A DNA stretch of 32,000 nucleotides from Cenarchaeum symbiosum A (lineage in GTDB: Archaea; Thermoproteota; Nitrososphaeria; Nitrososphaerales; Nitrosopumilaceae). The notes under the pieces were generated by a model. The model was not told the DNA's origin, searched no databases, and was given only the letters and a program-made list of their open reading frames with translations. Made by a program: the position numbers and the translations under genes. Position 1 is the first letter of the stretch. Every line of letters begins with the position of its first letter. The DNA is taken from contig DP000238.1 in NCBI GenBank assembly GCA_000200715.1, forward strand, positions 924,593 to 956,592, in the 5' to 3' direction. Shown one piece after another: positions 10,101 through 30,000 of this stretch.

Positions 10101-13100
10101 GTTCTCCAGGGACGGCACCACGATGCTGATAGTCGCGGTCAACACCAGCGGCGCCTTCAGCCTGGAGATACTCCAGTATGGCATGGATGCGCCATTCGAT
10201 GTGGGATCGGCCGAGCCCGAGGGCACGCTCGATACGGAGATACTGGGGGATCCGGTGGATGTGGCGGTCTCGTCAGACGGCCTGCGGGCATTTGCAATAG
10301 CCGGCGGCACCAGCACCGTGCACGGCTTCTCCCTGGCCGGCGCGTTTGACGCGGCCCGGTATCCGCCGGCAGAGGGCGCGTACGTGGGCGCAGAAGAGCA
10401 GGCGCCAACGGGCGCGGCAGTCTCCGGCGACGGGTCCATCTTTGTAGTCGGGGAATCTGGGATGATACGCAGGTATGACGCGGGCTCCGGCGGGTATGCA
10501 GAGGCGTATTCCGGCGCGGACAGAAACGCCACGGCGGCCACGGATATTGCATTCTCGGATGACGGCATGCTTGTCTTCATACTTGATGACGGCTCCGATG
10601 CGCTGTACGGATACAGGGCGGACTCGCCGTACGAGCTCGGCGGGCTGCCGCCGGCAGGCAGCCTGTATGTTGGGGATAATTCAAGCTCGCCTGCGGGGGC
10701 TGCATTCTCGGATGGCGGGGGCAGGCTCTTTGTGGCGGATGGCGCGACGGGAATGGTGCACGGGTATTCGCTTGCGGCGCCCTATGCGCTGGATGGCGCC
10801 ACATATACGGGGTCGTACGATTCTTCAGAACAGCAGGGCGCCCCCACCGGGGTGGCATTCTCGCCCGGTGGCATGGAGATGTTCATTTCAGGGGGGGAGT
10901 TTGTGCACATGTACGGGCTTGATGCGCCCTATGAGGTGGAATCGGCAGACAGTTCAGGCTCGTTCTATACGGGAAGGCATGACGGCGCCATACAGGGCGT
11001 GGACTTTTTCCCCGGCGGCTCGGCCATGGCGGTGGTCGGGGATGAGACGGACACCGTATACGTCTACGCGCTGGGCACGCACCACATCAGAGAGTGCGGT
11101 TTGGAGTATTCCTCCGGCGTGTGCATGCCTGATGACCTGCTTGCATACGGAAGGGCGGCGCCAACAGTGGCCGATTCGGCCGGGCTGGCGGCATTGTTCT
11201 TCCTGTCGGGAGGCGACGCGCCGGCGGTTCTAGATCTGCCCGGCGTGGGCGAGATCCCCATCCTGCCCATACCCGTGCCCGGCGATGACAGCCCGTCATT
11301 TGCGGAACTGCCCGGCGTGAAAGTCATGATGGGTGTAGGTGCTCCGAATGGAACGGACAGGCCGACCGTGGCAGAGGAGCACCGCCTGGTCCGGACCGTG
11401 TCGTTGTCCGGAAACGACACCCTGACAGTTGAGGAGAGGGACGACGTGGGATCCATGGCAAGGCCGAATGCAACGGATGCGCCGGCCATATCCGATCCGG
11501 TCAGGGTGGCCGTATTGTTCCATCTGGAGGGAGACGACGCGCCGGCTGTTCTAGATCTGCCCAGCGTGGGCGAGATGGCCAATCGGCCCATACCCGTGCC
11601 CGGCGATGACAGCCCGTCATTTGCGGAACTGCCCGGCGTGAAAGTCATGATGGGTGGAGATGCTCCAAATGGAACGGACAGGCCGACCGTGGCCGAGGAG
11701 CACCGCCTGGTCCGGACCGTGTCGTTGTCCGGAAACGACACCCTGACAGTTGAGGAGAGGGACGACGTGGGATCCATGGCAAGGCCGAATGCAACGGATG
11801 CGCCGGCCATATCCGATCCGGTCAGGGTGGCCGTATTGTTCCATCTGGAGGGAGACGACGCGCCGGCTGTTCTAGATGTGCCCGGCGTGGGCGAGACGGC
11901 CAATCGGCCCATACCCGTGCCCGGCGATGACAGCCCGTCATTTGCGGAACTGCCCGGCGTGAAAGTCATGATGGGTGGAGATGCTCCGAATGGAACGGAC
12001 AGGCCGACCGTGGCAGAGGAGCACCGCCTGGTCCGGACCGTGTCGTTGTCCGGAAACGACACCCTGACAGTTGAGGAGAGGGACGACGTGGGATCCATGG
12101 CAACCCCGAATGCAACGGATGCGCCGGCCATATCCGATCCGGTCAGGGTGGCCGTATTGTTCCATCTGGAGGGAGACGACGCGCCGGCTGTTCTAGATCT
12201 GCCCGGCGTGGGCGAGACGGCCAATCGGCCCATACCCGTGCCCGGCGATGACAGCCCGTCATTTGCGGAACTGCCCGGCGTGAAAGTCATGATGGGTGGA
12301 GATGCTCCAAATGGAACGGACAGGCCGACCGTGGCAGAGGAGCACCGCCTGGTCCGGACCGTGTCGTTGTCCGGAAACGACACCCCGTCAGTTGAGGAGA
12401 GGGAAGACGTGGGCGGCATGAGCCGGAATGCAGTGGATAGGCCGGCCATATCCGATCCGGCCAGGCTGTCTGCACAGTTCTTCCTGTCTGGAGACGACGC
12501 GCCGACGGTTCTAGATGTGCCCAGCGTGAGCGATCGCGCGGAGCACACTGGCAGCGGTGTGATGTCGCCGCCTGACCTGCAGGTGGTTTCCACCGTGCTG
12601 GACAGCAGGGGCGTACTGGAGATAACCTTTGACGGATTGGTGGTCGCAGAGAATATAGACTACAACCTGATTAGCATTACCGACGGGTATGCGCCAGCCG
12701 GGCGCATACTGCTGTCCCCCGGCGAGCTCACCCATTCCGGGGAGAACAGTCTGCGCTATACCCTGGGCGAGAACAAGTGGAACCTTGTGCGGAATTATGC
12801 GGATCCCCGGCTGCGGGTCGACATCGGGGCACTCGGGCCGGGCCTGCCCGATGTAGGATACCGGCTGCCGGATTCATTGTACCCGTACGAGCCGGATGTT
12901 GTATCCGCGGCCCTGCCCAACAACACCGAGGGAGCGCATCAGGGACTTGCATTCTCGAGGGACGGCACGGTGATGTTCACGGTGGGTCTGAATCTGGACA
13001 CGGTGTTCCGGTATGTGCTAGAACAACCCTACGACATATCCTCGGCAAGAATTGAAGGAAACTACAGCGTGGGCGACCGGGAGGTCAACCCGCGCGGACT

Positions 13101-16100
13101 GGCGTTCTCCCCGGACGGGCTCAAGATGTTCGTCGTGGGAAACGATGCGGTGCACCAGTATGCACTGGGCTCGCAGTTTGGCTTCAGCCCCGCCCCGTCG
13201 TTCGAGCATGACTTTAGTGTGGCCGAGGACGGCCTGGTCACGGGAATAGACTTTGGGAATAACGGCACCAGGATGTACCTATCGGGCGCAAACAACAGCG
13301 CCATCCAGCAGTACGACCTCTCTACACCGTACGATATAGAGGCGCAGCCCGTCCATGCGGGGAACTTTAGCACCGCCGGCCAGTATGACTCGCCCCGCGG
13401 GGTAGTAGTCTCCGGCGACGGCCGCATCATGCTGGTACTGGGCCAGCCGGACGACAAGGTGTTCATGTACGGGATGGACGAGCCGCACGATATATCCACC
13501 GCAGGGTATGTGGGCTCCCACGAGATCACAAACTCGGAGCGCAACCCGGAGGGAATAGCGGCGTCGGACGACGGAAGGCTGCTCTTTGTCACGGGCACCG
13601 TGACCAACAGTGTGTTCAGGTACAATCTCGGGGCGCCGTACGATGCGGCCCGGGACGGGGCGGGGGCCGGGCCCACCCTGACCAATACCATCAGGGCCCC
13701 TACGGGGATTGTATTTTCCCCTGACGGCCTGCAGTTGTTCCTCTCCTCCCACGGTGCAGATCTTGTACAATCGTACAACCTGACAGCCCCCTATGGCGTG
13801 GCGACGGCCACGCCTGCGGACACTTATAATCTTCCCGTGGACCCCGGCCGCAATCGTCCATTTGATGTGGAATTTTCCACGGATGGCCTCCTGATGTTTA
13901 CCACCGGGCGTAACCCCCTAAGACTGTATTCGTTTACGCTGGATGCGCCGTACAACATATTGTCGGCCGTGGAGAATAGCAGGTACGACATAACGATAGC
14001 GCCGTTGAATACTCAGACGGGCGTGATATTCAACCCCAATGGGACCATCATGCTGCTTGCAGCGGGAACCCGCGGCGGCGGCATCATACAGGAATACAAC
14101 CTCCCCAGCCCGTACAACATATCCGGCGCCGTGGCGGCCCCGTTCAGCATAACGGACGGGCTGGTCCCGCTGGGGATTACATACTCGTCGGACGGGCACA
14201 GGCTCTTCGTCATGGATGATGCCGAGGTGGTGCACAGGTACGACCTTCTAACGCCGTATACGCTGAGGGATGCCCTGTTTGTGGACTCTGGTGAATTCAA
14301 AGACGGTGCCCAGCCCAACGACTTGGCGTTCTCCGGTGACGGCGGAAAGATGTTCATAGCCTGGGGCAACGATAACAGGATAGAGACGTACAACCTGACA
14401 GCCCCCTACGACATAACCTCGTCTGCCAGCCCCGTGTCCCTTTCAGCGGACACCGGCTCCCCCACCCCGAGCGACGTCTCCGTGAGCGCAGACGGCAGGA
14501 CGGTGCTTGTATTCAACAATGTACGGGACGCGGTCATTGGGCACAGCCTACGCCAGCCGTACGACCTGTCCACACCCGCATCATCGGTCCAATCGGCAGA
14601 GGCCGACAACACCAATGTAAACGCGATGGAGTTCTCACCCAACGGGACGCTGATGTTCCTGTCGGGATGGAACGAGACAAGTCCCATAGTACAAGGACGA
14701 ACTGTCTATACGTACAACCTGAGCGCCCCGTTTGACGTATCCACGTTCCAGCGCATAGGCGAGTTTCACACCCGGGATGCGGTAAATGCGCTGACGGGAG
14801 ACGCCAGTATAAGCAGCCCCTCGGCAATGAGGTTCTCGGCTGACGGGACGGATCTGTATCTAATAGACGAAATCGATCAGTTGATACATCACTTTAGCCT
14901 GAGCAGCCCGTACCTGCTTGACAATACGACTGCCTATGTGGAAGCCCTTGATGTCAATCCGCCGGAGAGCAACCCCTCCGGGCTTGAACTGTCGGCCGAC
15001 GGCACAAGGCTGTTCATCACGGGGGCCGGCAGTGACCGCATACGCCAGTACGACATGGATATCGCGTACAACCTCTCCACCGCCGTGCATTCGGAATCGA
15101 TCAACGCGGTCGGGCTCGACAGCCAGGCCCGTGGGCTTGCATTCTCAGAGGACGGCTCTAGATTGTTCTTTGTCGGGGATGATACGGATCGGATATACCT
15201 GCTTGATCTGGCGGCCCCCGAGGTCATACGTGTACTGCCCGGCATGTTAGATGATGTGATATCTGTGACGCACAACGTAACGGCGGTGGACAGGCCCTCT
15301 ATCTCCGATGGCCGCCCAGACTCCACGGTTAAACCCATATCCGCCGGAGACGCCCCGTCATTTGTGGATGCGCCCGGCGTGGACGCCATGATAGGTAGGG
15401 ATGTGATGGATGCGCCGGCCGTATCCGATCCGGCCAGGCTGGCTGTATCGTTCCACCTGACGGGAGACGACGCGCCGGCGGTTCTAGATGTGCCCGGCGT
15501 GGGCGAGACGGCCAATCGGCCCATACCCGTGCCCGGCGATGACAGCCCGTCATTTGCGGAACTGCCCGGCGTGAAAGTCGTGATGGATGTAGATGCTCCA
15601 AATGGAACGGACAGGCCGACCGTGGCCGAGGAGCACCGCCTGGTCCGGACCGTGTCGTTGTCCGGAAACGACACCCTGACAGTTGAGGAGAGGGAAGACG
15701 TGGGCGGCATGAGCCGGAATGCAGTGGATAGGCCGGTCATATCCGATCCGGTCAGGGTGGCCGTATTGTTCCATCTGGAGGGAGACGACGCGCCGGCGGT
15801 TCTAGATGTGCCCGGCGTGGGCGAGATGGCCAACCAGTCCATACCCAGGCCCGCCGAGGATAGACCGTCATTCATGGATCTATCCGGTGTGGACTTTGCG
15901 GCGGTCAGGAATGCGGCAGACGCGCCGGCCGTGTCCGACGAGCCCAATCTGGCCCGGAGCACATCCATATCCGGAAATGATTCGCCATCATTCGAGGATA
16001 TGCCCGGCGTGGGCGGCATGGTAGCCCCGAATGCAGCGGATGCGCCGGCCATATCCGATCCGGCCAGGGTGGCCGTATTGTTCCATCTGGAGGGAGACGA

Positions 16101-18441
16101 CGCGCCGGCGGTTGATGATCTGCCCAGCGTGGGCGAGACGGCCAATCGGCCCATACCCGTGCCCGGCGATGACAGCCCGTCATTTGCGGAACTGCCCGGC
16201 GTGAAAGTCATGATGGGTGTAGGTGCTCCGAATGGAACGGACAGGCCGACCGTGGCAGAGGAGCACCGCCTGGTCCGGACCGTGTCGTTGTCCGGAAACG
16301 ACACCCTGACAGTTGAGGAGAGGGACGACGTGGGATCCATGGCAAGGCCGAATGCAACGGATGCGCCGGCCATATCCGATCCGGCCAGGGTGGCTGTATT
16401 GTTCCATCTGGAGGGAGACGACGCGCCGGCGGTTGATGATCTGCCCAGCGTGGGCGAGACGGCCAATCGGCCCATACCCGTGCCCGGCGATGACAGCCCG
16501 TCATTTGCGGAACTGCCCGGCGTGAAAGTCATGATGGGTGGAGATGCTCCGAATGGAACGGACAGGCCGACCGTGGCAGAGGAGCACCGCCTGGTCCGGA
16601 CCGTGTCGTTGTCCGGAAACGACACCCTGACAGTTGAGGAGAGGGACGACGTGGGATCCATGGCAACCCCGAATGCAACGGATGCGCCGGCCATATCCGA
16701 TCCGGTCAGGGTGGCCGTATTGTTCCATCTGGAGGGAGACGACGCGCCGGCGGTTCTAGATGCGCCCGGCGTGGGCGAGATCCCCGTCCTACCCATACCC
16801 CTGCCCGGCGGAGATAGCCCGTCATTCATGGAACTGCCCGGCGCGAACGTTATGACGGGCGGGGATACGGTAAACAGGAGTGCAGCGGATGCGCCGACCG
16901 TGGCCGAAGACCAACGCGTGGCCCGGAGCACATCCATATCCGAAGATGATTCCCCGACATTTGAGGAGATGCCCGGCGTGGGCGGCATGACTAGCCGGGA
17001 TGCGGCGGATATGCCTGCCGTCTCCGATCCGGTCAGGGTGGCCGTATTGTTCTTCCTGTCGGGAGATGACGCACCGGCGGTTCTAGACGTGCCCCGCGTG
17101 GACAGCAGCATCGGGGACATGCCCGGCGCGGGCCATGGCGATGACACACTGGCCGTGGCTGATCATGCCAGCCTCGGGGTATACAGGATGGCGTCCGACG
17201 CGCCGGTCATTGAAGATATAATGGATACAATAGTCAATGGCACGTTCCGGCTCACCCCGAGAGATATTCCGGTCGTGGCTGATCCGGCCAGGCTGGCTGC
17301 ACAGTTCTTCCTGTCGGGAGATGACGCACCTACTGTTCTAGATGTGCCCGGCGTGAATAGCGGCGTCGAGGATGCACCAACCGTGTCTGATCACGCCAGC
17401 ATCGGGTTCTCCCGGATGGCATCCGACGAGCCGGCCGTGGCAGATTCCGCCCAGCCCGGCGACCTGATGTTCCGCGATACTCCAGACGTCGAAGATTCGG
17501 CGGCGCTCGGCCTCTCCATTACTGTCTCCGACGAGCCCGCCGTGGCCGACCGCACGCCGGGTATAGAACCGGCAGACAGTCCGGCAGTCTCGGATTCGGC
17601 CGTGCATGCAGTCATGCCGGGTCCGCCGGCAGAACCCGAGCCCCGGCCCGCGCCGAGCCCCGCACCCCGGTCCGGCGGGGGCGGCGGAGGCGGCAGCCGC
17701 ACCGGAGTCACCTTCGAGGGCGGCGCATCCTCGGGGCACAGCGTATCGTTTAGCTTCATCTCAAGCGCGGCAGACGCAATGCACGGCCTGTCGGACATAC
17801 GCCTGGCACCCGGCGCGGCCCTTACGGTGGCGCCCCAGATGGTCCCCGACAACCTAAACGTCTTCGAGATGGAGCTGGCCTTTGGCACGGACGACGGCGC
17901 GGCTGCAAACGTCCATTACAGCAGGATAGGCAACTTCCTCGGGATTACCTGCGACGGGGACGCGTATACATCCGGGATGCTGCACGCGTGCGACATCTCG
18001 TCCGCCATATCCGAGGATTCCGTCACAGTCCACGGGGAGGGCCCTGCCTTTGAGGGGATAACCGTGCCCTTTGAGGGCGACTTTGAGGGGACCGTCAGCA
18101 TACTCCTCCGGGACAGCCGCGGCATAATCTTGGCCGCGCATGAATCCGACGTGTACGGCATACAGACAGCCCTGCCCGCGGAGCCGGAGCCCCCCGCCCC
18201 CGCCGAGATCGCCCCCGCCGTGGATGATGCCGCCCCGGAGGAGCCCCGCCGCGCAGAGCCCGATCCGGAGCCTGTGGAGCGCGCCCCGGAGCCGGAGCCT
18301 GAGCCCAGCGCGGATCCGGTGCGCATTGCGGGGCCCGAGCCTGCAGACCCCGAGCCCGAGGATGAGGGGGTCATAGGGATGATAGTCGACTTTATCAGGT
18401 CCGTCCTGGGCCGGGTCTGGCCTGCGGCCGGCACCCCATGA
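1..18441 (+). CDS. Giant extracellular repeat protein, 5'-partial (6,146 codons visible). It contains beta-propeller blade arrays, Cys-hairpin/Ig-like spacers, two acidic 107-aa tandem-repeat arrays and a Pro/Glu-rich C-terminus.
   Basis: Frame 1 is open from nt 1 to the TGA at 18439-18441. Nt 1-48 encode AAYADSAESGSGEPGG with no stop and resemble the inter-blade loops seen later (e.g. ATYAGSRTVSGQEGEPAG), so the ATG at 49 is internal. There are 73 copies of the blade motif G-[VIL]-[AD]-[FIL]-S-x-D-G-x-x-[ML]-[FLIV]-V ... [HRQ]-x-Y-x-L-x-x-P-[YF]-D-[IV]-x-x-A, 7 spaced Cys hairpins and in-frame 321-bp repeats. An 18.4-kb open frame with periodic conservation cannot arise by chance. Confidence 0.92.
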   Translation, partial: AAYADSAESGSGEPGGMIFSADGTSMYLLDADDGGVREYSISPPYGFDSVSSVMLHEIEGAANLTGMTFSPDGTAIFISGDAGIFRYELPAEYSPAGAVLSGRFTPAAPAGAPADIEISADGLHLVVAGADGSIHGYALDRQSELGARGVPRALNLGGGSVPAGVAFSGNGSIAYVADSGSGEVRAYGLASPYDIQGAASIFSLSVPAVPAGVALSPDGQRMLVPEPGGILQYVLGTPYDLSSAVLGVSFVPDEEPDPRGVAFTPDGLRMFVSGPEFIHRYGLAEPYNVDDPAYAGSDASPIPSTEGVAFSDHGYRMFVAGGGAVSAYSLDDPFAPSTAIHDGSFDLGDGADPRGVAFSADGSRMFVPGGGNEFVLQYAVGTHRIDVCPDGMSVFEGGCTMTGPAGGPRLVSAAMDPRTGELEMFFDRAMDPGLSTGIVQIRDGVSPAGGTTLAGSFSAGPRPEVLRITLENDSRAEAAEFADPRLYFGNDALQGLDGGFFPAAFDAPRTEFTGVLDVSTWDTTVRGVTFSHDGLQVFTVSHGDTIVRFVLSEPYDINTASHARTYGGNIQDEAGSGIRFSSDGMIMFTSDWGKDAIHRYDLVSPYELDGRVRGGSFNVRSQTGTPFGLDFSADGSIMFVISSNPGTLFRYDLGIPYDVRSAVLDSRLDISGELTAGHGVDFAPDGMRFIAAGFEFEGPDATSTDVNQYDLSEPYNITSAVHAGAYIVPAAQGGFTNDIALSEDGTVFLLADPQFDAIQQFRLAEPFDLLPRAYHASANITAHAPEPEDIVIYGNGSRMLILDGDAGGVYEYGIAEPHDVRTMSYTGVFQNVTRDGGSPSGLALSPDGTLMLVSGSPQGHVSAYALGTAHDISSAAYSSSLNVSDMAPDPTGVDISDDGSWLFVSRERGSRGDVHRYHLAEPFEIGTALYLDTLDTDKDGRPSEAALGTDGLYLLATNRDLGAVAHYTMDVPFEIDGGVLEYVLDVSPEEAAPAGLDVADDGSSMHVAGAGGIHQYLFDGRPLEYCSEGQSIYNGACAGGLPEAPSITSAAAMLQAGGGTIEVRFDRQVRADTARPSIINITDGGAAAGFALNPGSAAGTGNVLSFAIDADGAAELAGQAGPVVRFGAGSLLADNGAAFPPVFGLSPLMYEGAVDTSAQAASVGGAAFGAGGSRLFVAGEDGMIHRYDLPVPFWPAGATHAESHDFGAGGLAGVALSDNGRRIFVISGADGRIDQYNLGTAFDLGGPVHMGSFDTGANASGIYLAPGGANMLVSNSSGSVHRYALGALFDVTSAVPAGSADTGAIEPTGVAFSADGLNMIVSDRSGMLHSYALGVGFDLGSLVRGGTFSSAVQSPSPADVAFSPDGTTMIISERTGSIHAYSLNSHPVRICAAPGMLSGGACAPPEMPRITDAALAGGVVVLEFDRTIDVSTVNISRMHVADGLNLSRSVDLHGGILETASDLDTLRIRHSGLLGAEFGDASIHFDAGALEDSMGMPFPPAFGLPLPAHVETLSGVVGERPTGMAFDPGGMRMYVTGRDPGAVRMYALPGPFDIAGAVEGDAFSVEEDGVPTGIAFSPNGSRMFLSGNTGDSIYGYNLSIPYDVTTSVHSETFSVAGQDASPTGVAFSDDGMHMMVSGDAGDSVYAYVLAEPYDITGAVHAGTLDISGQETGPNDIAIGPLGMRVFVTGGAGGAVHMYELAEQYSLDGALYSATLAVGGEDSAPVGSAFSGHGLDIFVIGNQNDGVYGYDLAAPYDLSQAGTDLYTPDASGDINPTGAVLSPDGAHLFITDSTEVIDLRHDLAVPNYIASAGPAGTLPTGTAGITGADISADGTMIFVMNNSDDTVYRYSMDAPYDVSAAVEDMTLDVSGQERTPTGLDVSSDGTWIFVTGITSDSVHSYRMGTPFDIGGAAYNASLAVQDSAPQGVAVSDDGLFIMVAGNENDRLYRYAMSSPFDLNTASYAGSFYTGMQDVTPRDVSFAAGGTSVLVPGSSNDSVHKYPLNVHRLEVCQEGERFTNGACSVRAAGSPSMVSASIDGSALLSMLFDQEIDAGTVDASRIHVRDGGGFDGGIALSGLNATISGGAVEFVLGTADAAEVLGYENPRLHFDSGALSSSGGGSFPRPYGLPLPAYRESVPAPGDGTVPGGLAFSPDGMRMYTLGTGNGTVEEYSLSGPYDSSGATLQGSLYIGEREESPTGLALGDDGSALFVVGTGSGSVHMYDLDSAYSVESATYAGSRTVSGQEGEPAGVAFSSNGTLMFVFGEQTGQVHRYGLEQPYRPGGSGYLGVFDPGDLPGIPQDIIFSADGSGMSLLYSGEVPGVISDAVHHYRLGAPYETAGAAYAGNYSVTRWDDEPRGAAYAADGSSMLVLGAEGIHRYDLAAPFDPVRTISSGRTDISSDVQYPIDAAFSADGTRMFALDLSDPHIHVYELGTPFDARTASRTMLLNLTEERNPKGIEFSRDGTQMMILGREELHRYSLDEPFETEPVHVSTQDDFIFIVNRFSGMDFSSDGLSLFHTSLASLQVQAFSLGAPYDIRSYAHLPSLNIGELGSQPVALAFSESGDRMFVLEAGSDGLHEYSLGIPYNLDTAERAGTHVAGVLDASIGGISFSKDGQKLYILSDVPGTIDQHVIGTRQLNTCSADQAAFEGTCRRELAVHGSDEPAVSENPARHIGDESAVADSAVAEITFHQAPVFNGAFLDMGGRILELAFDEEIDVARPERMSITDSKDYAQGTSLAGASVGGEGGIVRLGLTAEQMAGIASYQSPALRLGELAVIGTGGGAFPGPYDIADAAYVGSADVAGDASHPTGVAFAPNGSRFFVADPTNVRSRVVQYGWDGSNIASAAPEGSAVLTGPENSRNIELGGISLDPDGGRLLATDIEGSARVYSYSIEGAEIGALEYDGGSLNTNNRASFPTDAVAGFGGHRLFVSNYVDSRIHVYNLDRPHDIGAGSAAYNGSVQTDAGGLNATGVFVSPNGAHMIVTLQDGLDGGRILRYNMSTPFDAYGIIQDGALDISGETVAPQGAAFTPDGLEMIVVDSAVGMLRHYSLGIRNITVCEEGMIVDSGMCTVERADATSRPGVSDRASIREMAPTVLSVSLYADPGVLEIAFDAAINSSLTDPSKMHIRDGSAPSGGTSLAGGGVVGSTPENAAGISLTQAQLSEISGYENPTLHLAPGALQSIGGHAYPPGGGLPFPSEYASIDLLEYDNSAAAIAFSEDGTRMFMIGGEFETVFAFDLSRPFMIDTARPAGSFHAGDDVRFVEDMEFARGGGSVFVSDSSTDLVHAYALGAPYDVTTAVREQTLDTGADGLDARGTAFSRDGRTLFVLDGDETAARYATSSPYYIEGAEYEGDVPVDGARFVTNMEFSRDGTTMLIVAVNTSGAFSLEILQYGMDAPFDVGSAEPEGTLDTEILGDPVDVAVSSDGLRAFAIAGGTSTVHGFSLAGAFDAARYPPAEGAYVGAEEQAPTGAAVSGDGSIFVVGESGMIRRYDAGSGGYAEAYSGADRNATAATDIAFSDDGMLVFILDDGSDALYGYRADSPYELGGLPPAGSLYVGDNSSSPAGAAFSDGGGRLFVADGATGMVHGYSLAAPYALDGATYTGSYDSSEQQGAPTGVAFSPGGMEMFISGGEFVHMYGLDAPYEVESADSSGSFYTGRHDGAIQGVDFFPGGSAMAVVGDETDTVYVYALGTHHIRECGLEYSSGVCMPDDLLAYGRAAPTVADSAGLAALFFLSGGDAPAVLDLPGVGEIPILPIPVPGDDSPSFAELPGVKVMMGVGAPNGTDRPTVAEEHRLVRTVSLSGNDTLTVEERDDVGSMARPNATDAPAISDPVRVAVLFHLEGDDAPAVLDLPSVGEMANRPIPVPGDDSPSFAELPGVKVMMGGDAPNGTDRPTVAEEHRLVRTVSLSGNDTLTVEERDDVGSMARPNATDAPAISDPVRVAVLFHLEGDDAPAVLDVPGVGETANRPIPVPGDDSPSFAELPGVKVMMGGDAPNGTDRPTVAEEHRLVRTVSLSGNDTLTVEERDDVGSMATPNATDAPAISDPVRVAVLFHLEGDDAPAVLDLPGVGETANRPIPVPGDDSPSFAELPGVKVMMGGDAPNGTDRPTVAEEHRLVRTVSLSGNDTPSVEEREDVGGMSRNAVDRPAISDPARLSAQFFLSGDDAPTVLDVPSVSDRAEHTGSGVMSPPDLQVVSTVLDSRGVLEITFDGLVVAENIDYNLISITDGYAPAGRILLSPGELTHSGENSLRYTLGENKWNLVRNYADPRLRVDIGALGPGLPDVGYRLPDSLYPYEPDVVSAALPNNTEGAHQGLAFSRDGTVMFTVGLNLDTVFRYVLEQPYDISSARIEGNYSVGDREVNPRGLAFSPDGLKMFVVGNDAVHQYALGSQFGFSPAPSFEHDFSVAEDGLVTGIDFGNNGTRMYLSGANNSAIQQYDLSTPYDIEAQPVHAGNFSTAGQYDSPRGVVVSGDGRIMLVLGQPDDKVFMYGMDEPHDISTAGYVGSHEITNSERNPEGIAASDDGRLLFVTGTVTNSVFRYNLGAPYDAARDGAGAGPTLTNTIRAPTGIVFSPDGLQLFLSSHGADLVQSYNLTAPYGVATATPADTYNLPVDPGRNRPFDVEFSTDGLLMFTTGRNPLRLYSFTLDAPYNILSAVENSRYDITIAPLNTQTGVIFNPNGTIMLLAAGTRGGGIIQEYNLPSPYNISGAVAAPFSITDGLVPLGITYSSDGHRLFVMDDAEVVHRYDLLTPYTLRDALFVDSGEFKDGAQPNDLAFSGDGGKMFIAWGNDNRIETYNLTAPYDITSSASPVSLSADTGSPTPSDVSVSADGRTVLVFNNVRDAVIGHSLRQPYDLSTPASSVQSAEADNTNVNAMEFSPNGTLMFLSGWNETSPIVQGRTVYTYNLSAPFDVSTFQRIGEFHTRDAVNALTGDASISSPSAMRFSADGTDLYLIDEIDQLIHHFSLSSPYLLDNTTAYVEALDVNPPESNPSGLELSADGTRLFITGAGSDRIRQYDMDIAYNLSTAVHSESINAVGLDSQARGLAFSEDGSRLFFVGDDTDRIYLLDLAAPEVIRVLPGMLDDVISVTHNVTAVDRPSISDGRPDSTVKPISAGDAPSFVDAPGVDAMIGRDVMDAPAVSDPARLAVSFHLTGDDAPAVLDVPGVGETANRPIPVPGDDSPSFAELPGVKVVMDVDAPNGTDRPTVAEEHRLVRTVSLSGNDTLTVEEREDVGGMSRNAVDRPVISDPVRVAVLFHLEGDDAPAVLDVPGVGEMANQSIPRPAEDRPSFMDLSGVDFAAVRNAADAPAVSDEPNLARSTSISGNDSPSFEDMPGVGGMVAPNAADAPAISDPARVAVLFHLEGDDAPAVDDLPSVGETANRPIPVPGDDSPSFAELPGVKVMMGVGAPNGTDRPTVAEEHRLVRTVSLSGNDTLTVEERDDVGSMARPNATDAPAISDPARVAVLFHLEGDDAPAVDDLPSVGETANRPIPVPGDDSPSFAELPGVKVMMGGDAPNGTDRPTVAEEHRLVRTVSLSGNDTLTVEERDDVGSMATPNATDAPAISDPVRVAVLFHLEGDDAPAVLDAPGVGEIPVLPIPLPGGDSPSFMELPGANVMTGGDTVNRSAADAPTVAEDQRVARSTSISEDDSPTFEEMPGVGGMTSRDAADMPAVSDPVRVAVLFFLSGDDAPAVLDVPRVDSSIGDMPGAGHGDDTLAVADHASLGVYRMASDAPVIEDIMDTIVNGTFRLTPRDIPVVADPARLAAQFFLSGDDAPTVLDVPGVNSGVEDAPTVSDHASIGFSRMASDEPAVADSAQPGDLMFRDTPDVEDSAALGLSITVSDEPAVADRTPGIEPADSPAVSDSAVHAVMPGPPAEPEPRPAPSPAPRSGGGGGGGSRTGVTFEGGASSGHSVSFSFISSAADAMHGLSDIRLAPGAALTVAPQMVPDNLNVFEMELAFGTDDGAAANVHYSRIGNFLGITCDGDAYTSGMLHACDISSAISEDSVTVHGEGPAFEGITVPFEGDFEGTVSILLRDSRGIILAAHESDVYGIQTALPAEPEPPAPAEIAPAVDDAAPEEPRRAEPDPEPVERAPEPEPEPSADPVRIAGPEPADPEPEDEGVIGMIVDFIRSVLGRVWPAAGTP
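1540..3066 (+). repeat. Propeller module P1 (10 blades).
   Basis: I counted ten S-x-D-G-type blade cores by eye, from GVTFSHDG to GLDVADDG. The module ends at the hairpin LEYC..GAC (3076-3111). Confidence 0.75.
3457..4160 (+). repeat. Propeller module P2 (5 blades).
   Basis: The blade cores are AAFGAGG, VALSDNG, IYLAPGG, VAFSADG and VAFSPDG. The module ends at the hairpin VRIC..GAC (4171-4206). Confidence 0.75.
4531..6018 (+). repeat. Propeller module P3 (10 blades).
   Basis: There are ten blade cores, from GMAFDPGG to DVSFAAGG. The module ends at the hairpin LEVC..GAC (6028-6063). Confidence 0.75.
6400..7908 (+). repeat. Propeller module P4 (10 blades).
   Basis: There are ten blade cores, from GLAFSPDG to GISFSKDG. 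The module ends at the hairpin LNTC..GTC (7918-7953). Confidence 0.75.
8362..9162 (+). repeat. Propeller module P5 (5 blades).
   Basis: The blade cores are VAFAPNG, ISLDPDG, VAGFGGH, VFVSPNG and AAFTPDG. The module ends at the hairpin ITVC..GMC (9172-9207). Confidence 0.7.
9595..11085 (+). repeat. Propeller module P6 (10 blades).
   Basis: There are ten blade cores, from AIAFSEDG to GVDFFPGG. The module ends at the shorter hairpin IREC..GVC (11095-11124, C-x8-C). Confidence 0.75.
11191..12540 (+). repeat. Tandem-repeat array A: about 4.2 copies of a 321-bp (107-aa) in-frame unit.
   Basis: Unit starts (codon V/A of A-[AV]-LF[FH]L) fall at 11191, 11512, 11833 and 12154, and a partial fifth unit starts at 12475. 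Units 2 and 3 differ at only 4 of 107 aa. The unit sequence is AVLFHLEGDDAPAVLDLPSVGEMANRPIPVPGDDSPSFAELPGVKVMMGGDAPNGTDRPTVAEEHRLVRTVSLSGNDTLTVEERDDVGSMARPNATDAPAISDPVRV. Confidence 0.95.
12910..15215 (+). repeat. Propeller module P7 (15 blades), with no terminal Cys hairpin.
   Basis: There are fifteen blade cores, from GLAFSRDG to GLAFSEDG. An Ig-like spacer (~12560-12880) precedes the module, and array B follows it directly. Confidence 0.75.
15290..17600 (+). repeat. Tandem-repeat array B: 6-7 units of 312-327 bp of the same family as array A, decaying at both ends.
   Basis: Unit starts fall at 15445, 15763, 16075, 16396, 16717 and 17044, and a degenerate unit starts near 17299. The units at 16075 and 16396 are near-identical to array A units, down to the GVG versus GGD and ARPNAT versus ATPNAT variants. 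The units at 15763 and 16717 are a divergent subtype (..ARSTSIS..DSPSFE.MPGVGGM..). Confidence 0.9.
17610..18441 (+). other. C-terminal region of the giant protein: a Pro-rich linker, a Gly7 run, a domain of about 150 aa with a C-x12-C pair, a Pro/Glu-rich tail and an 18-aa amphipathic end.
   Basis: The Pro-rich linker and Gly run read PGPPAEPEPRPAPSPAPRSGGGGGGGS. The Cys pair is ITC..(x12)..C at nt 17950-17991. The tail reads ALPAEPEPPAPAE...PEPEPEPSADP...PEPEDE and the protein ends GVIGMIVDFIRSVLGRVWPAAGTP*. Confidence 0.7.
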
Positions 18442-19022: not shown

Positions 19023-19817
19023 ATGTCCGAGATGCAGTTCGGCAAGCACCTCGACGAGCTCCGGCGCAGGGCCCTCCGGGTGGTCGTCATAACGGGGGCT
19101 GTCACCGCCTTTTTGCTGGCCTTCCACGCCGAGCCCGCCGAGCTGTGGGGGGCCACCGTCTACTATCCGGTGCCCGACCCGCTGCACAACATGGCCGCCC
19201 AGATAACCGACCACATGAGGGCCGCCCTTGTGCCCGAGGGCGTCGAGCTGATACAGACCACGCCGGGGCAGGCGTTCTTTGCGCAGGTGTACATAGCCGC
19301 CCTCGTCGGGGTCACGGTCTCGACGCCCGTGGCCGTCCGGGAGCTGGCGGCATTCCTCAGGCCCGCCCTCAGGGAAAGCGAGATCCACGTGGGCCGCTCG
19401 ATATCCGCGCCGGCTGTCGGGCTCTTTGCCGCAGGGTGCGCGTTTTCCTATATCGTGGTCATACCATACATACTTGACTTTCTGTACAAGATAGGCGAGT
19501 CTGCCGGGATAACCACGTTTCTCAATGTAATGGACTTTGTGTCGTTTGTGCTGCAGTTCCTGCTCGCCTTTGGGATATCGTTCCAGCTGCCCCTGGTCAT
19601 GTTTGCCGTCACCGCGTCCGGCATGGTGGACGGCCGGTTCTGGAGGAGGAACATCAGGTATGCGCTACTGGGGATAGTGATATTTGGCGCGGCCATAACG
19701 CCCGACGGGTCCGGCGTCACCATGTGGTTTGTAGCGGGGCCGATGATTGGATTGTACTTTGCGGGCATGTTCTTTGCCGAGAGGCGGGAGCGCAAGGAGA
19801 AGAGCGCCGGGGCCTAG
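19023..19817 (+). CDS. tatC: Sec-independent (twin-arginine) protein translocase subunit TatC.
   Basis: The N-terminus carries the HLDELRRR motif and the protein has a six-TM profile. It also shows the ..FAFGISFQLPLVMF.. and ..AAITPDG.. signatures typical of TatC. Confidence 0.9.
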   Translation: MSEMQFGKHLDELRRRALRVVVITGAVTAFLLAFHAEPAELWGATVYYPVPDPLHNMAAQITDHMRAALVPEGVELIQTTPGQAFFAQVYIAALVGVTVSTPVAVRELAAFLRPALRESEIHVGRSISAPAVGLFAAGCAFSYIVVIPYILDFLYKIGESAGITTFLNVMDFVSFVLQFLLAFGISFQLPLVMFAVTASGMVDGRFWRRNIRYALLGIVIFGAAITPDGSGVTMWFVAGPMIGLYFAGMFFAERRERKEKSAGA

Positions 19818-19858
19818 GGCGCGGCACGCCCGGTGCCTGAAAGGCGCGCGATTAAACG

Positions 19859-19865
19859 TTTAAAT
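19859..19865 (+). promoter_or_regulatory. TATA-like box (TTTAAAT) about 28 nt upstream of the tatA ATG.
   Basis: It is an AT-rich element in the 72-bp tatC-tatA spacer. Confidence 0.45.
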
Positions 19866-19889
19866 CAGTAATTGCCGCATCCGTATTCG

Positions 19890-20081
19890 ATGTTCCCGCT
19901 GGCAGGCTTTATCGCAGGGCAGGAGTGGATCTTTATCATAGTTATAGCAGTCGTGCTCATATTCGGGGCAAAAAAGATCCCCGAGCTTGCAAAGACCTTT
20001 GGAAAGGCAAAGGGCGAGTACGAAAAGGGCAAGATAGAGGCAGACAAGGAGCTCAAGGAATTCAAAGAGGGCAAGGACTAG
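19890..20081 (+). CDS. tatA: Twin-arginine translocase subunit TatA/E.
   Basis: The sequence MFPLAGFIAGQEWIFIIVIAVVLIFGAKKIPELAKTFGKAKGEYEKG shows the classic single TM, the FG-x-KK-[IL]-PE hinge and an amphipathic helix. I prefer the ATG at 19890 to the track's TTG at 19872. Confidence 0.85.
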   Translation: MFPLAGFIAGQEWIFIIVIAVVLIFGAKKIPELAKTFGKAKGEYEKGKIEADKELKEFKEGKD

Positions 20082-27348: not shown

Positions 27349-28161
27349 GTGAATGCTCTAAGGGACGGCAGGGGCCCGATCGTGCTTGGGATCATCGCCA
27401 TGGCGGCGCTCTTTCTTGTATATTCAAAGTACCAGGACCCCGAGTTCATCACGCCTGGAGCGGTGGACAGCTTTCTGAGGATGGCATACGGCTTTTACGT
27501 GGGGATGCTGGCGTCGATGGCGTCAGTGGCCTATGGGCTGCACAAGTACCACTCGGCTGCCGCAGCAGGCGGCCGGGGCATGCTGTCCGTCATAGCCCTC
27601 GCGACCAGCGGCAGAAAGCCCCGCAAGGTCTTTGTCGCCACGTTTGTCGCATACGGGATATTCTTTTCTCTTACATCGGGGACGCTTGTATACCAGCCCG
27701 AGATCATCTTTTCGTTCCACTACGGGGTGGATGTGCCGTCGGCCGAGATCATACCGTGCTGCGACGCGCCGGGCTTTATGCCAAAGATCCACGTGTATAT
27801 AACAGAGAATGTCGGCCTGCAGGTGATCCCCCTGAACCTGGCCCTGCAGGTGGCTGTCTCGTATCTTGTTGCCGTCAACATATCGCTGGCGGCGGGCGCA
27901 TATGCTGCAGCCAAGAGGGGCGCCGGCGTGGGCGGGATAGGCGCGGTGACGGGCCTCTTTGTGGCATGCCCGACATGCGTGGGGTCGCTGCTCTCGGCAT
28001 TTGTCGGGACGGCAAGCGGCATAGCCCTTGCAGCTACGCTAGCACAGTTTCAGACCGTATTCATAGCAGTCAGCATACCGGTCCTGCTGGTGGGCCCCGT
28101 CATCATGGCAAGAAAGCTGCAGGGGGGCGATTGCGCGCTGGACCTTGCCGTGAATCACTGA
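27349..28161 (+). CDS. Multi-pass membrane protein with vicinal CC and intramembrane CPTC motifs. Its function is unknown.
   Basis: It is 270 aa with about 6 hydrophobic segments and a GTG start. The two Cys motifs are ..AEIIPCCDAPGF.. and ..GLFVACPTCVGSLLSAF... Confidence 0.7.
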   Translation: MNALRDGRGPIVLGIIAMAALFLVYSKYQDPEFITPGAVDSFLRMAYGFYVGMLASMASVAYGLHKYHSAAAAGGRGMLSVIALATSGRKPRKVFVATFVAYGIFFSLTSGTLVYQPEIIFSFHYGVDVPSAEIIPCCDAPGFMPKIHVYITENVGLQVIPLNLALQVAVSYLVAVNISLAAGAYAAAKRGAGVGGIGAVTGLFVACPTCVGSLLSAFVGTASGIALAATLAQFQTVFIAVSIPVLLVGPVIMARKLQGGDCALDLAVNH

Positions 28162-28180
28162 GTGCAGGAGCACGGGATCT

Positions 28181-28579
28181 TTGGACGGCGCGCCGGACGC
28201 GCCCGATACCGGCAGTCCCCCGCCTCAATACAAGAACGAGGGCACCGCTCTGGCGCTGTCCGTCGTTCTTGGCCTGGTAGGAATAGGGGGCGCGGGCCAC
28301 ATGTATGCAGGAAAGGCGGGAAAGGGCGCCGGCCTGCTGGTTCTCAGCATGCCCCTGTATGGGATGGTCCTGCTGATACTGTACGTATTCATTGGAATCG
28401 GCTTTCTTGTGGCCGTCGATGAGGAGGTAGGGCCATATCTTAAAACACTCGTCATATTCATCGGAACCTGCTTTATGGCATCATACGTCTGGCTGTTCTT
28501 TTGGCAGGTTTTTGACGCCAGGAAGCTGTGCAGGATGTATAACGGCCAGATAAGGAAAACAGGCATGCCGCCATGGTAG
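28181..28579 (+). CDS. TM2-domain-like small membrane protein.
   Basis: KNEGTALALSVVLGLVGIGGAGHMYAGKAGKGAGLLVL resembles the TM2 signature (A-x-x-L-x-x-F-L-G-x-x-G-x-H-R-F-Y-x-G-K). The only in-frame start is TTG, 20 nt after the upstream stop and preceded by GGAG, so it is probably co-transcribed. Confidence 0.55.
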   Translation: MDGAPDAPDTGSPPPQYKNEGTALALSVVLGLVGIGGAGHMYAGKAGKGAGLLVLSMPLYGMVLLILYVFIGIGFLVAVDEEVGPYLKTLVIFIGTCFMASYVWLFFWQVFDARKLCRMYNGQIRKTGMPPW

Positions 28580-28757
28580 GAGCACAGCCTGCCCACATTG
28601 AGTGTAAGACATGGTGATGGGAGCAAGGCTGGGCACCAGGATTCAAGGCCGGCTCAAGGCGCGGGAACCGTCCAACTGTGCATGGCCCGCCCATCAACCG
28701 GCTGTATCGATAACAATCACAGGCAGTGGCCGCCTGGGCGGTCGATGCATGTTGCCA

Positions 28758-28765
28758 TTTTTTTT
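28758..28765 (+). terminator. T8 run in the intergenic region downstream of the TM2 gene.
   Basis: It is the longest T-run on the + strand in the window, about 180 nt after the stop at 28579. Confidence 0.4.
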
Positions 28766-28866
28766 CAAGGTCCTTTATAAGGGATAATCATGCCTAGTGT
28801 GCTTGTTCCGGCCCCCGGCCTGACCAACCCGGCGTGCCACATTTTACAAGAGCCCCGCTACGCAAC

Positions 28867-28873
28867 TTTATAT
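28867..28873 (+). promoter_or_regulatory. TATA-like box (TTTATAT) about 26 nt upstream of the ATG at 28896.
   Basis: It supports the + strand frame as the expressed one in this repetitive locus. Confidence 0.5.
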
Positions 28874-28895
28874 TCCCACGTCCGGGGGGCTCCGC

Positions 28896-29276
28896 ATGAA
28901 AAAGGCATACATTGCAGTCGGGATTCTAGTCCCAGTGGCCATAGTGTCCATAATCTTCGGGTCCTTGGGGTCCGAAGGTGACTCCATGATGGAGGGCAGC
29001 ATGATGGACGACCTCATGATGGATGATACCATGGTTGATGAGACCATGATGGATGACTCTATGATGGACGAGGCGGACATGATGGATGATACCATGATGG
29101 ACGAGACGGACATGATGGATGATACCATGATGGACGAGATGGACATGATGGATGACTCTATGATGGATGATACCATGATGGACGAATCCGAGATGGAAGA
29201 GACCATGATGGACGAGATGGAAGAAGAGCCCCAGCACATCAGCATAAGCGTGGGCGACACACCGGCATTCCAATAG
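28896..29276 (+). CDS. Membrane-anchored Met/Asp/Glu-rich repeat protein (126 aa).
   Basis: The N-terminal TM or signal anchor is MKKAYIAVGILVPVAIVSIIFGSLG. Aa 31-111 then contain 30 Met and 36 Asp/Glu in 81 residues (MMDDT/MMDES/MMDET...), and the protein ends PQHISISVGDTPAFQ. Confidence 0.7.
   Translation: MKKAYIAVGILVPVAIVSIIFGSLGSEGDSMMEGSMMDDLMMDDTMVDETMMDDSMMDEADMMDDTMMDETDMMDDTMMDEMDMMDDSMMDDTMMDESEMEETMMDEMEEEPQHISISVGDTPAFQ
28986..29228 (+). repeat. Coding microsatellite-like tract, (ATGATGGAYGAN NNN)n, with a 33-nt higher-order unit.
   Basis: ATGATGGATGATACCATGATGGACGAGACGGAC is followed directly by ATGATGGATGATACCATGATGGACGAGATGGAC, and there are many 15-nt MMD[DE]x units. Confidence 0.85.
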
Positions 29277-29327
29277 ATACACGGTTCCACATCACCATTT
29301 CCCCGGGCAGACACCCGGACCCCGGCG

Positions 29328-29708
29328 CTACAGGCCGCCGGTCATATCCTTTATTCTGTTTATTAACCCGATTTTTGTATCCATGTGCACTTCGGGCTCC
29401 ATCGTAAAGTAGATGGTGTAGTTTCTCGGGTACAGAACAATCTGCGTGACCCGCTCGCGCTCGACATGCACATAACTGACGGCCCCCAGGGTGTCATCGA
29501 ACTCCTCGCGCATGCGCCTCCTCTTGGCCACCTGCCTGCAAAAATGCTCCTCTTCTTTTTGTGATTCAAGCGATGTCTTGCCCCTCTTCATTATCGCCTC
29601 GACTATTGCGCCATCCTCGTCTATGACTGCCGCAAAGCGCATCTGCGGCTCGAGGTCTATCATGTCCTCGACAAGATCCTTGAGGTTCCCGTCCCCGTAA
29701 TAGCCCAT
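29328..29708 (-). CDS. Hypothetical protein (126 aa), possibly with a Roadblock/LC7-like fold.
   Basis: I prefer the ATG at 29708 (MGYYGDGNLKDLVEDM...) because TTTATAA (29732-29738, minus strand) lies about 27 nt upstream and inside the track's 35-aa extension. The pattern ..RFAAVIDEDGAIVEAI....VHVERERVTQIVLY.RNYTIYFTME is Roadblock-like, but this assignment is tentative. Confidence 0.65.
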   Translation of the reverse strand: MGYYGDGNLKDLVEDMIDLEPQMRFAAVIDEDGAIVEAIMKRGKTSLESQKEEEHFCRQVAKRRRMREEFDDTLGAVSYVHVERERVTQIVLYPRNYTIYFTMEPEVHMDTKIGLINRIKDMTGGL

Positions 29709-29731
29709 TGCGCGCGGCCGCCCGCACCCGG

Positions 29732-29738
29732 TTATAAA
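29732..29738 (-). promoter_or_regulatory. TATA box (TTTATAA on the minus strand) about 27 nt upstream of the ATG at 29708.
   Basis: It is a perfect TATA-like heptamer in GC-rich DNA. Confidence 0.5.
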
Positions 29739-29829
29739 CGGGATTCTCCCCAGGACTGTGTGCCCGGCACATGCCGCAGGCGCAAGATAGCGGATCCAAC
29801 TAAAATAGGGCACAGTGCCGCGCCGCCCC

Positions 29830-30000
29830 GTGAAGACCCACAGGATACTTACATTTCTTGGGGCTGTGCTGCTTGCGGCTACGGTTGCCCTGTATTACGG
29901 GGAAGATGGGGGATCGGATCTGGCGTATGTGACAGGGGCTGCAATGCTTGCAGCGCTGGCAGGCGGCCTTCTCTTATTCAACAAGGATCATGTAAAATAG
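29830..30000 (+). CDS. Small 2-TM membrane protein (56 aa, or 61 aa from the GTG at 29815).
   Basis: The two hydrophobic helices are ILTFLGAVLLAATVALYY and AYVTGAAMLAALAGGLLLF. TAAAATA at 29801-29807 lies 26 nt upstream of the in-frame GTG at 29830. Confidence 0.45.
   Translation: MKTHRILTFLGAVLLAATVALYYGEDGGSDLAYVTGAAMLAALAGGLLLFNKDHVK

Follow-up and report, generated by a model that had tools for sequence, protein, structure and literature searches.

What kind of gene product, if any, lies behind an open reading frame (ORF) that spells mostly methionine and acidic residues over 81 codons? The question is raised by a locus in a 32,000-nucleotide (nt) stretch of DNA from Cenarchaeum symbiosum A (GenBank assembly GCA_000200715.1, contig DP000238.1, positions 924,593 to 956,592 of the forward strand), which is referred to below as the window and numbered from its first letter. 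An original prediction, made from the letters alone, had described a membrane-anchored Met/Asp/Glu repeat protein at 28896-29276 and proposed that it buffers copper at the cell surface or acts as an oxidant sink. It had also placed the DNA in an ammonia-oxidising archaeon, which the identity of the organism bears out. We find that the plus-strand ORF very probably encodes a real exported, disordered repeat protein. Its repeat, MM[DE][DE]x, appears from sequence to be a module of exported proteins that is phylogenetically concentrated in marine ammonia oxidisers and in symbionts of sponges. The window ORF itself reads as a cargo-less anchor plus tether, and as such is unique among the sampled archaeal loci.

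Anatomy of the Met/Asp/Glu ORF

The 126-amino-acid (aa) ORF is the sole open frame across the locus on the plus strand. It has the following parts.

28896..29276 (+): complete ORF of the Met/Asp/Glu repeat protein, ATG start, TAG stop, 126 aa
28896..28985 (+): N-terminal segment, residues 1-30, with a KK n-region, a 19-residue hydrophobic segment and SLGSEGDS (AlphaFold 2 (AF2), hydropathy)
28986..29228 (+): MM[DE][DE]x repeat tract, residues 31-111, predicted disordered (composition, repeat family D6, AF2)
29229..29273 (+): non-repeat tail PQHISISVGDTPAFQ, residues 112-126, with no folded domain after it

Residues 31-111 comprise 30 Met, 23 Asp and 13 Glu (37% Met and 44% Asp/Glu), and the whole protein has 25% Met and 33% charged residues. 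The protein contains 13 MM pairs and 12 MM[DE][DE]x pentapeptides. Its Met spacings are MM 13, MxM 1, MxxM 3, MxxxM 11, and MxxxxM 21. The repeat tract has neither His nor Cys, and the single His among the 126 residues lies outside it. At the DNA level, Tandem Repeats Finder detects a 15-nt period (15 copies, 70% matches), a 33-nt period (5.7 copies, 81% matches, score 205), and a third period at 66 nt; the peptide encoded by the 33-nt unit is MMDD[TS]-MMDExD. After the repeat the chain has 15 residues left, and the stop codon is followed at 52 nt by the end of the convergent DUF6659 gene.

The N-terminus, MKKAYIAVGILVPVAIVSIIFG, ranks first in hydrophobicity among the 162 window ORFs of at least 60 aa. 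The AF2 prediction, run in single-sequence mode, places a helix over residues 4-24, with a predicted local distance difference test (pLDDT) value of 82 in that block. Residues 1-30 are thus predicted to be either a signal anchor (N-in, C-out) or a cleaved signal peptide. The rest of the chain is predicted as coil with a pLDDT of about 57, which leaves the anchor helix as the sole predicted structure. The original prediction was accurate here: its count of 30 Met and 36 Asp/Glu in 81 residues agrees exactly with ours, and the pentapeptides with a 33-nt higher-order repeat and the N-terminal transmembrane segment or signal anchor are recovered.

Promoter geometry and reading frame

The features that bear on expression and on the choice of reading frame are listed below.

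28867..28874 (+): TATA-like A/T box TTTATATT, centre 26 nt 5' of the ATG
28737..28765 (+): hairpin with a T8 run after it, where the upstream unit TrkH / 270-aa / TM2 probably ends
28868..29314 (-): antisense shadow ORF, 148 aa, SSIMV repeats, synonymous fraction 0.29, not favoured as coding
28926..29282 (-): second antisense shadow ORF, 118 aa, HHGII repeats, synonymous fraction 0.06, not coding-like

The A/T box had been noted in the original prediction as a dedicated promoter element, and its surroundings strengthen that assignment. A/T runs of at least 7 nt are rare, with only 36 in the window, and five neighbouring genes (184-aa, 217-aa, ATP-grasp, TrkH, and DUF6659 when started from Met36) have an A/T box of the same geometry, 24-31 nt 5' of the start. 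By our own estimate, the odds of such a box for a given start are about 1%. The position of this putative promoter implies a leaderless or near-leaderless transcript. As the upstream unit probably ends at the hairpin and T8, the Met-rich ORF is left as its own transcription unit.

We then inspected the variation among the 12 canonical 15-nt units. Minor alleles fall 18 times on third, 6 times on first, and 3 times on second positions of the plus-strand codons, and in the two acidic codons of the unit the variation is almost confined to the third base. This third-position bias across the units indicates purifying selection, as far as sequence can tell. The synonymous fraction is 0.33 in the plus frame, 0.29 in the antisense -1 frame (VSSIM), and at most 0.06 in the other four frames. 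The plus and -1 frames are not separable by synonymous counts because their third positions coincide, and both antisense frames are open because of the way the repeat is constructed. Hence, the internal repeat test cannot separate the two, and the frame has to be decided by external features.

If the plus frame were untranslated, the gene would be the 148-aa SSIMV ORF, which starts 13 nt past the DUF6659 stop on the same strand, or the repeat would be non-coding DNA. The closeness of the two synonymous fractions is in line with an antisense gene, relatives have a co-directional gene after DUF6659, and the accession numbering points to one annotated coding sequence, ABK77545, in this interval, which may be any of its ORFs. 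(Five other window ORFs are identical to the GenBank proteins ABK77539, ABK77541, ABK77543 (CENSYa_0911), ABK77544 (CENSYa_0912), and ABK77546.) The external features favour the plus frame instead. The antisense 148-aa ORF lacks an anchor, a domain, and an A/T box at 24-31 nt, whereas the plus frame has both the anchor and the box. Elsewhere, the MM[DE][DE]x frame is joined without a break to recognised domains, among them DM13, cupredoxin, and DUF7482. Over the locus, Rfam gave nothing at threshold and two sub-threshold chance matches, and a non-coding RNA reading was dropped. An untranslated plus frame is therefore very improbable. The plus-strand assignment of the original prediction stands on the anchor, the A/T box, and the domain fusions; the within-repeat conservation test does not discriminate.

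The MM[DE][DE]x module in other genomes

One genome per species, from 185,579 species, was scanned for DNA encoding (MM[DE][DE]x)2MM[DE]. The scan returned 98 loci, distributed as follows.

Nitrosopumilaceae / Nitrosopumilus / Cenarchaeum: 35 loci
Candidatus Poribacteria: 18 loci
Chloroflexota-type metagenome-assembled genomes (MAGs): 13 loci
Firmicutes: 11 loci
Other groups: 21 loci

Pfam searches with 94 encoded proteins matched DM13 (13), DUF7482 (7), plastocyanin-type Copper-bind (6), Cupredoxin_1 (3), and HlyD (5), as well as periplasmic binding proteins, OmpA, SH3_3, and others. All of the matched domains are extracytoplasmic. At the 35 Nitrosopumilaceae loci, the repeat stands beside DM13 (13), DUF7482 (6), cupredoxin (6), and solute-binding (2) domains. 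In the archaeal loci it usually connects an N-terminal signal anchor to the folded domain. The window ORF has the tandem pentapeptides directly after the signal anchor, as this archaeal tether class does, and lacks the folded ectodomain. Lineages that live in sponges, from several phyla, are over-represented among the carriers of the module; that many of the MAGs come from sponges or from host-associated assemblies is taken from their names. The literature that we searched on the motif, the locus tags, and Met-rich proteins of ammonia-oxidising archaea and sponge symbionts returned nothing relevant and no description of an MM[DE][DE]x tether; the module is apparently undescribed.

The repeat varies in length and in spelling. 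Within single families the number of units ranges from 3 to 81: DUF7482 proteins have from 3 (L008) to 81 (L029), and DM13 proteins have 3-15. The fifth residue varies (T, K, S, G, D), and the acid codons are GAT/GAC or GAA/GAG. As the pattern is kept across codon sets and fifth residues, selection seems to act on the peptide and not on the DNA. The original prediction held that the Met-Met density of the window protein lies beyond known motifs. Other archaeal proteins contradict this. A DUF7482 protein of a Nitrosopumilus MAG (L029:5367-7790, +) has 81 consecutive MMDDT units (414 aa), and a DUF7482 protein of a Nitrosopumilus MAG at L022:4329-6569 (+) has (MMMDE)n plus MMTDE arrays with 50% Met over 343 aa; the window protein is therefore not the extreme.

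The location of the repeat between anchor and domain, the tolerance of 3-81 units within one protein family, the full predicted disorder, and the 44% of acidic residues would also suit a structural polyanion. Such a spacer or brush would fill or charge the pseudo-periplasm (as an entropic bristle, by NH4+ retention, or in S-layer spacing), with Met serving as a flexible, non-glycosylated hydrophobic filler. This reading does not account for the retention of two Met, a costly residue, in each unit whatever the phylum or codon set, Ser/Thr/Pro linkers being the norm. We consider it distinctly unlikely.

One further archaeal protein has a different layout. The Nitrosopumilus protein at L083:1673-2971 (-) has a cupredoxin-like part at its N-terminus, a (MMDETMMEDKDE)n array, and a PEFG...hydrophobic anchor at its C-terminus, and matches no Pfam family. 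Its higher-order unit, MMDETMMEDKDE, resembles the 11-residue unit of the window protein.

Stand-alone bacterial versions

All 18 Poribacteria loci encode a 90-158-aa protein that consists of a signal and the repeat and nothing else. Poribacteria are sponge symbionts, as is C. symbiosum. The leader of this family is conserved and lipoprotein-like, MLKFQ..FVSC (MLKFQ..AFVSCERAQQIMTPVTDDMM), and the (MMDDG)n array runs to 0-13 residues from the C-terminus. A representative locus is given here.

L072:4526-4891 (-): Poribacteria lipoprotein; 17 other loci (L004 to L100) encode further members

The genes stand in the same order, TPR / Met-rich / cytochrome-P460-domain / alpha-amylase, at all 11 loci that have both flanks inside 8 kb, and a database search added 18 unnamed members to the family. 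Hence, an exported protein with nothing but a Met/acid repeat after its signal can be encoded by a conserved gene. Smaller proteins of the stand-alone type were found in Litorimonas, Rhodothermales, Rhodobacterales, and Paenibacillus. The Poribacteria family search did not recover the window protein, and no homology is detectable between the two outside the repeat.

An orphan ORF at a variable spot

A word-indexed search of 5.8 billion proteins with the window protein gave 6 matches, and an exhaustive HMMER search of 1.84 billion representatives gave 12. All of these matches are repeat-driven; none has the window N-terminus or tail, and none is an orthologue. Searches of Pfam, NCBIfam, and PDB sequences gave no match. 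The back-translated N-terminus has no counterpart in metagenome contigs, and comparison of the window anchor with the anchors of related archaeal proteins gave nothing significant. The exact protein is missing from the gene index and from a 15-billion-protein collection (both strands, 13 start variants). The search for homologues and composition-matched proteins in Nitrososphaerota that the original prediction had called for gave no orthologue; the repeat itself occurs at 35 Nitrosopumilaceae loci.

The neighbours of the ORF encode a TrkH-CBS protein, a 270-aa membrane protein, a TM2 protein, DUF6659, and EF-2. The flanking TrkH-CBS, 270-aa, DUF6659, and EF-2 genes are conserved in Cenarchaeum-like relatives, and the DNA between the 270-aa and DUF6659 genes differs. 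Blastn homology between the window and the relative L101 ends at 28028 and restarts at 29357, which makes the TM2 gene, CENSYa_0912, and the Met-rich ORF specific to this lineage, at a spot of variable content. What this interval contains in each genome is as follows.

Window, 28029..29356 (blastn): lineage-specific DNA with the TM2 gene (CENSYa_0911), CENSYa_0912, and the Met-rich ORF
L104, 836-840: nothing
L001, 8381-8715: DUF5615 gene
L101, 4381-7157: HNH gene, 104-aa gene, and the gene of a 457-aa protein
L101:4394-5767 (-): 457-aa protein with signal anchor, Met/Asp/Lys-rich linker, and Thioredoxin_4/DsbA domain

The linker of the 457-aa protein reads MDKDAM..., MDKDAMMDKDAM... Its gene lies tail-to-tail with DUF6659 and corresponds to the window ORF in position and relative strand. 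No homology is detectable between this DsbA-like protein and the window ORF.

This setting raises the prospect that the window ORF is a cargo-less remnant or a neutral ORF: an ectodomain such as a cupredoxin would have been lost in a rearrangement, or the tract would have expanded de novo; promoter, anchor, and linker would still be present, and the product would have no function of its own. Apart from the missing orthologue and the variable spot, further observations are consistent with this. A domain is present in every complete archaeal protein with the repeat, and the L101 equivalent is an anchor and linker followed by a domain. In addition, the tail segment PQHISISVGDT is identical at 7/11 positions to PTSVSINVGDT, the strand preceding the first copper ligand of archaeal cupredoxins. 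The match has E = 0.02 in a search space of 900 nt only, is not significant more broadly, and is far too short for significance. When cupredoxin, DM13, DUF7482, and the L101 DsbA-like protein were compared with the locus by tblastn, this 11-residue tail match was all that emerged, with no domain remnant beyond the tail, and the N-terminus has no identifiable parent either. The frame argues against decay as well. It is intact over 81 codons despite the divergence of the repeat (70-81% identity), even though any frameshift would lead to a stop within 15 nt in both other plus frames, and the variation is concentrated at third codon positions. Stand-alone versions are, moreover, conserved genes in Poribacteria. 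On balance we hold a remnant to be somewhat improbable, yet a serious competitor to any functional reading.

Oxidant buffering versus copper binding

Among all the readings we tentatively prefer, by a narrow margin, an oxidant or thioether buffer analogous to MrpX, with the remnant second and copper binding third. The gene would be transcribed independently from its own promoter. The N-terminal signal anchor would insert the product N-in/C-out, or the product would be secreted after cleavage. About 95 residues of disordered, polyanionic, thioether-rich chain would then be exposed between the membrane and the S-layer, and the protein would amount to a stand-alone, cargo-less copy of the Nitrosopumilaceae MM[DE][DE]x tether. 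Its approximately 30 exposed Met side chains may act as a sacrificial buffer for surface electrophiles, such as hypohalous acids, chloramines, peroxynitrite, and singlet oxygen, while Asp and Glu would keep so Met-rich a chain in solution and stretched out. As a secondary property, these thioethers may also bind Cu(I) weakly. Oxidant buffering would account for the presence of the module on ectodomains that are unrelated and mostly of redox type, and for its enrichment in lineages that live with a host.

Several observations weigh against this assignment. Family scans found no Msr or MsrPQ among the ORFs of the 32-kb window, nor any molybdopterin oxidoreductase, ferric-reductase-like, or Msr family. 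Msr and MsrPQ are likewise not found at the syntenic loci of relatives, beside the Poribacteria family, or beside the stand-alone analogues L084, L043, and L087. As none lies near any instance examined, the recycling partner that defines the MrpX system is missing. Met reacts only slowly with H2O2, the oxidant most discussed for ammonia-oxidising archaea. The ORF is an orphan, and its closest relatives are empty or differently filled at the same spot. Complete repeat-only proteins are absent from the 35 archaeal loci. A pure oxidant sink, finally, does not need the regular MM-acid-acid-x pattern.

The copper sponge or chaperone of the original prediction draws on the same side chains. Met pairs would bind Cu(I) or Ag(I), and carboxylates would attract Cu(II), for buffering, relay, or detoxification at the surface. 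In Ctr1, CopA/PcoA, and CusF, Cu(I) is bound by clusters of Met, MMMM runs among them. Four thioethers in seven residues (MMxxxMM) could wrap one Cu(I), and the tether directly precedes a plastocyanin-type cupredoxin at 6 of the 35 archaeal loci. Met-only peptides have a Cu(I) affinity of about micromolar, and the Mg and Ca of seawater would saturate the carboxylates. Such an affinity is too weak to scavenge picomolar marine copper. The canonical spacings MxM and MxxM are rare (1 and 3) and the repeat offers no His or Cys. The tether occurs equally on DM13, DUF7482, solute-binding, DsbA-like, HlyD, and OmpA domains. The family scans found no copper-homeostasis genes in the window, and there are none at the syntenic loci of relatives, beside the Poribacteria loci, or beside L084, L043, and L087. 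On the other hand, disordered periplasmic Met-rich metal sponges do exist, SilE being an example (PMC5008109). A copper sponge is thus chemically possible, but nothing in these results speaks for it specifically, and as a function it is rather unlikely; an oxidant sink and a cargo-less remnant are each at least as likely.

Taking the window ORF and its analogues together, we offer a tentative hypothesis: MM[DE][DE]x arrays may be an unrecognised, convergent extracytoplasmic thioether buffer against oxidants, and possibly Cu(I). They would serve as a protective tether on archaeal redox ectodomains, with the C. symbiosum ORF and the Poribacteria lipoproteins as stand-alone, sponge-adapted forms. 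Exported, disordered Met-rich proteins have so far been represented by a few bacterial cases, namely MrpX for hypochlorite and SilE/PcoE for silver and copper. A strictly periodic, sequence-unrelated version is common in the secretome of an abundant marine archaeal family and in sponge symbionts of several phyla. If the arrays do buffer oxidants or copper, this would bear on how catalase-poor, copper-dependent ammonia oxidisers deal with reactive species at their surface, and on how sponge symbionts tolerate their host. The module is short enough for synthesis, so that both chemistries are directly testable. The stakes are lower for the window ORF alone, which is an orphan and may be a remnant.

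Neighbouring genes and other features of the window

The genes around the variable spot have features of their own, as have more distant parts of the window.

27349-28161 (+): polytopic membrane protein of 270 aa, motifs IPCCDAPGFMP and ACPTCVGS, without a match in Pfam or NCBIfam
28611-28787 (+): CENSYa_0912, 58 aa, annotated as hypothetical, overlapping the hairpin and T8 at 28737-28765
29328-29813 (-): DUF6659 / Roadblock-like gene, annotated as 161 aa from a GTG
29815-30000 (+): 61-aa two-helix membrane ORF between DUF6659 and EF-2
49-18441 (+): giant 6130-aa ORF of SGL/lactonase-type beta-propeller repeats
19023-20081 (+): TatC and TatA genes side by side

The 270-aa gene always adjoins TrkH-CBS in the relatives L001, L101, and L104, and its motifs suggest that it could encode an undescribed thiol- or metal-handling membrane protein. 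CENSYa_0912 is probably a spurious call. Homologues of the DUF6659 protein are 126 aa long and an A/T box lies 27 nt 5' of Met36, so the true start of this gene is probably at 29708. The 61-aa ORF has an 82-aa counterpart in L001 and a weak GVDTG_CTERM match. The giant ORF contains 321-nt tandem repeat blocks, up to 99% identical, at 11026-12533 and 15280-17360. The adjacent TatC and TatA genes show that components for twin-arginine export are encoded close to the locus.

Comparison with known systems

To our knowledge, MrpX is the sole experimentally characterised protein with an architecture and composition of this kind. MrpX of Azospira suillum is a small exported protein with 20% Met and 44% charged residues and no folded domain; it is sacrificially oxidised by hypochlorite, re-reduced by YedY, and encoded in a yedYZ (msrPQ)-mrpX operon under SigF/NrsF (Melnyk et al. 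2015; PMC4436054). The window protein shares with it the small size, the N-terminal signal and predicted export, and the absence of a folded domain, and has a more extreme composition. It differs from the bacterial MrpX in its regular pentapeptides, its purely acidic charge, and its probable membrane anchoring, and neither yedYZ/msrPQ nor SigF/NrsF accompanies it at the window locus.

SilE is an exported, disordered, Met-containing protein that binds many soft metal ions, and the SilE/PcoE proteins are characterised by paired His/Met motifs, folding upon binding, and sil/pco operons (PMC5008109). Export, intrinsic disorder (predicted here), and Met content are common to these proteins and the window protein. 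Unlike them, the window protein matches no family, has no His/Met pairs, and has no sil/pco/cus-type operon nearby.

The Mets motifs of Ctr1, CopA/PcoA/CueO, and CusF have MxM or MxxM spacing and are located within a transporter or oxidase. What they share with the window protein is the presence of thioether clusters outside the cytoplasm. In the window protein, MxM (1) and MxxM (3) are outnumbered by MM (13) and MxxxxM (21), and nothing is attached to the repeat.

The Poribacteria family resembles the window protein in comprising only a signal and a Met/acid repeat and in having a sponge symbiont as host. It differs in its leader (MLKFQ..FVSCERAQQIMTPVTDDMM), in the Gly at the fifth position, and in its TPR / cytochrome-P460-domain synteny. 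The Nitrosopumilaceae tethers have the same pentapeptide, the same position after the signal anchor, and the same taxon as the window ORF. In all complete archaeal examples the tether continues into a folded domain, whereas the window ORF ends 15 residues past the repeat.

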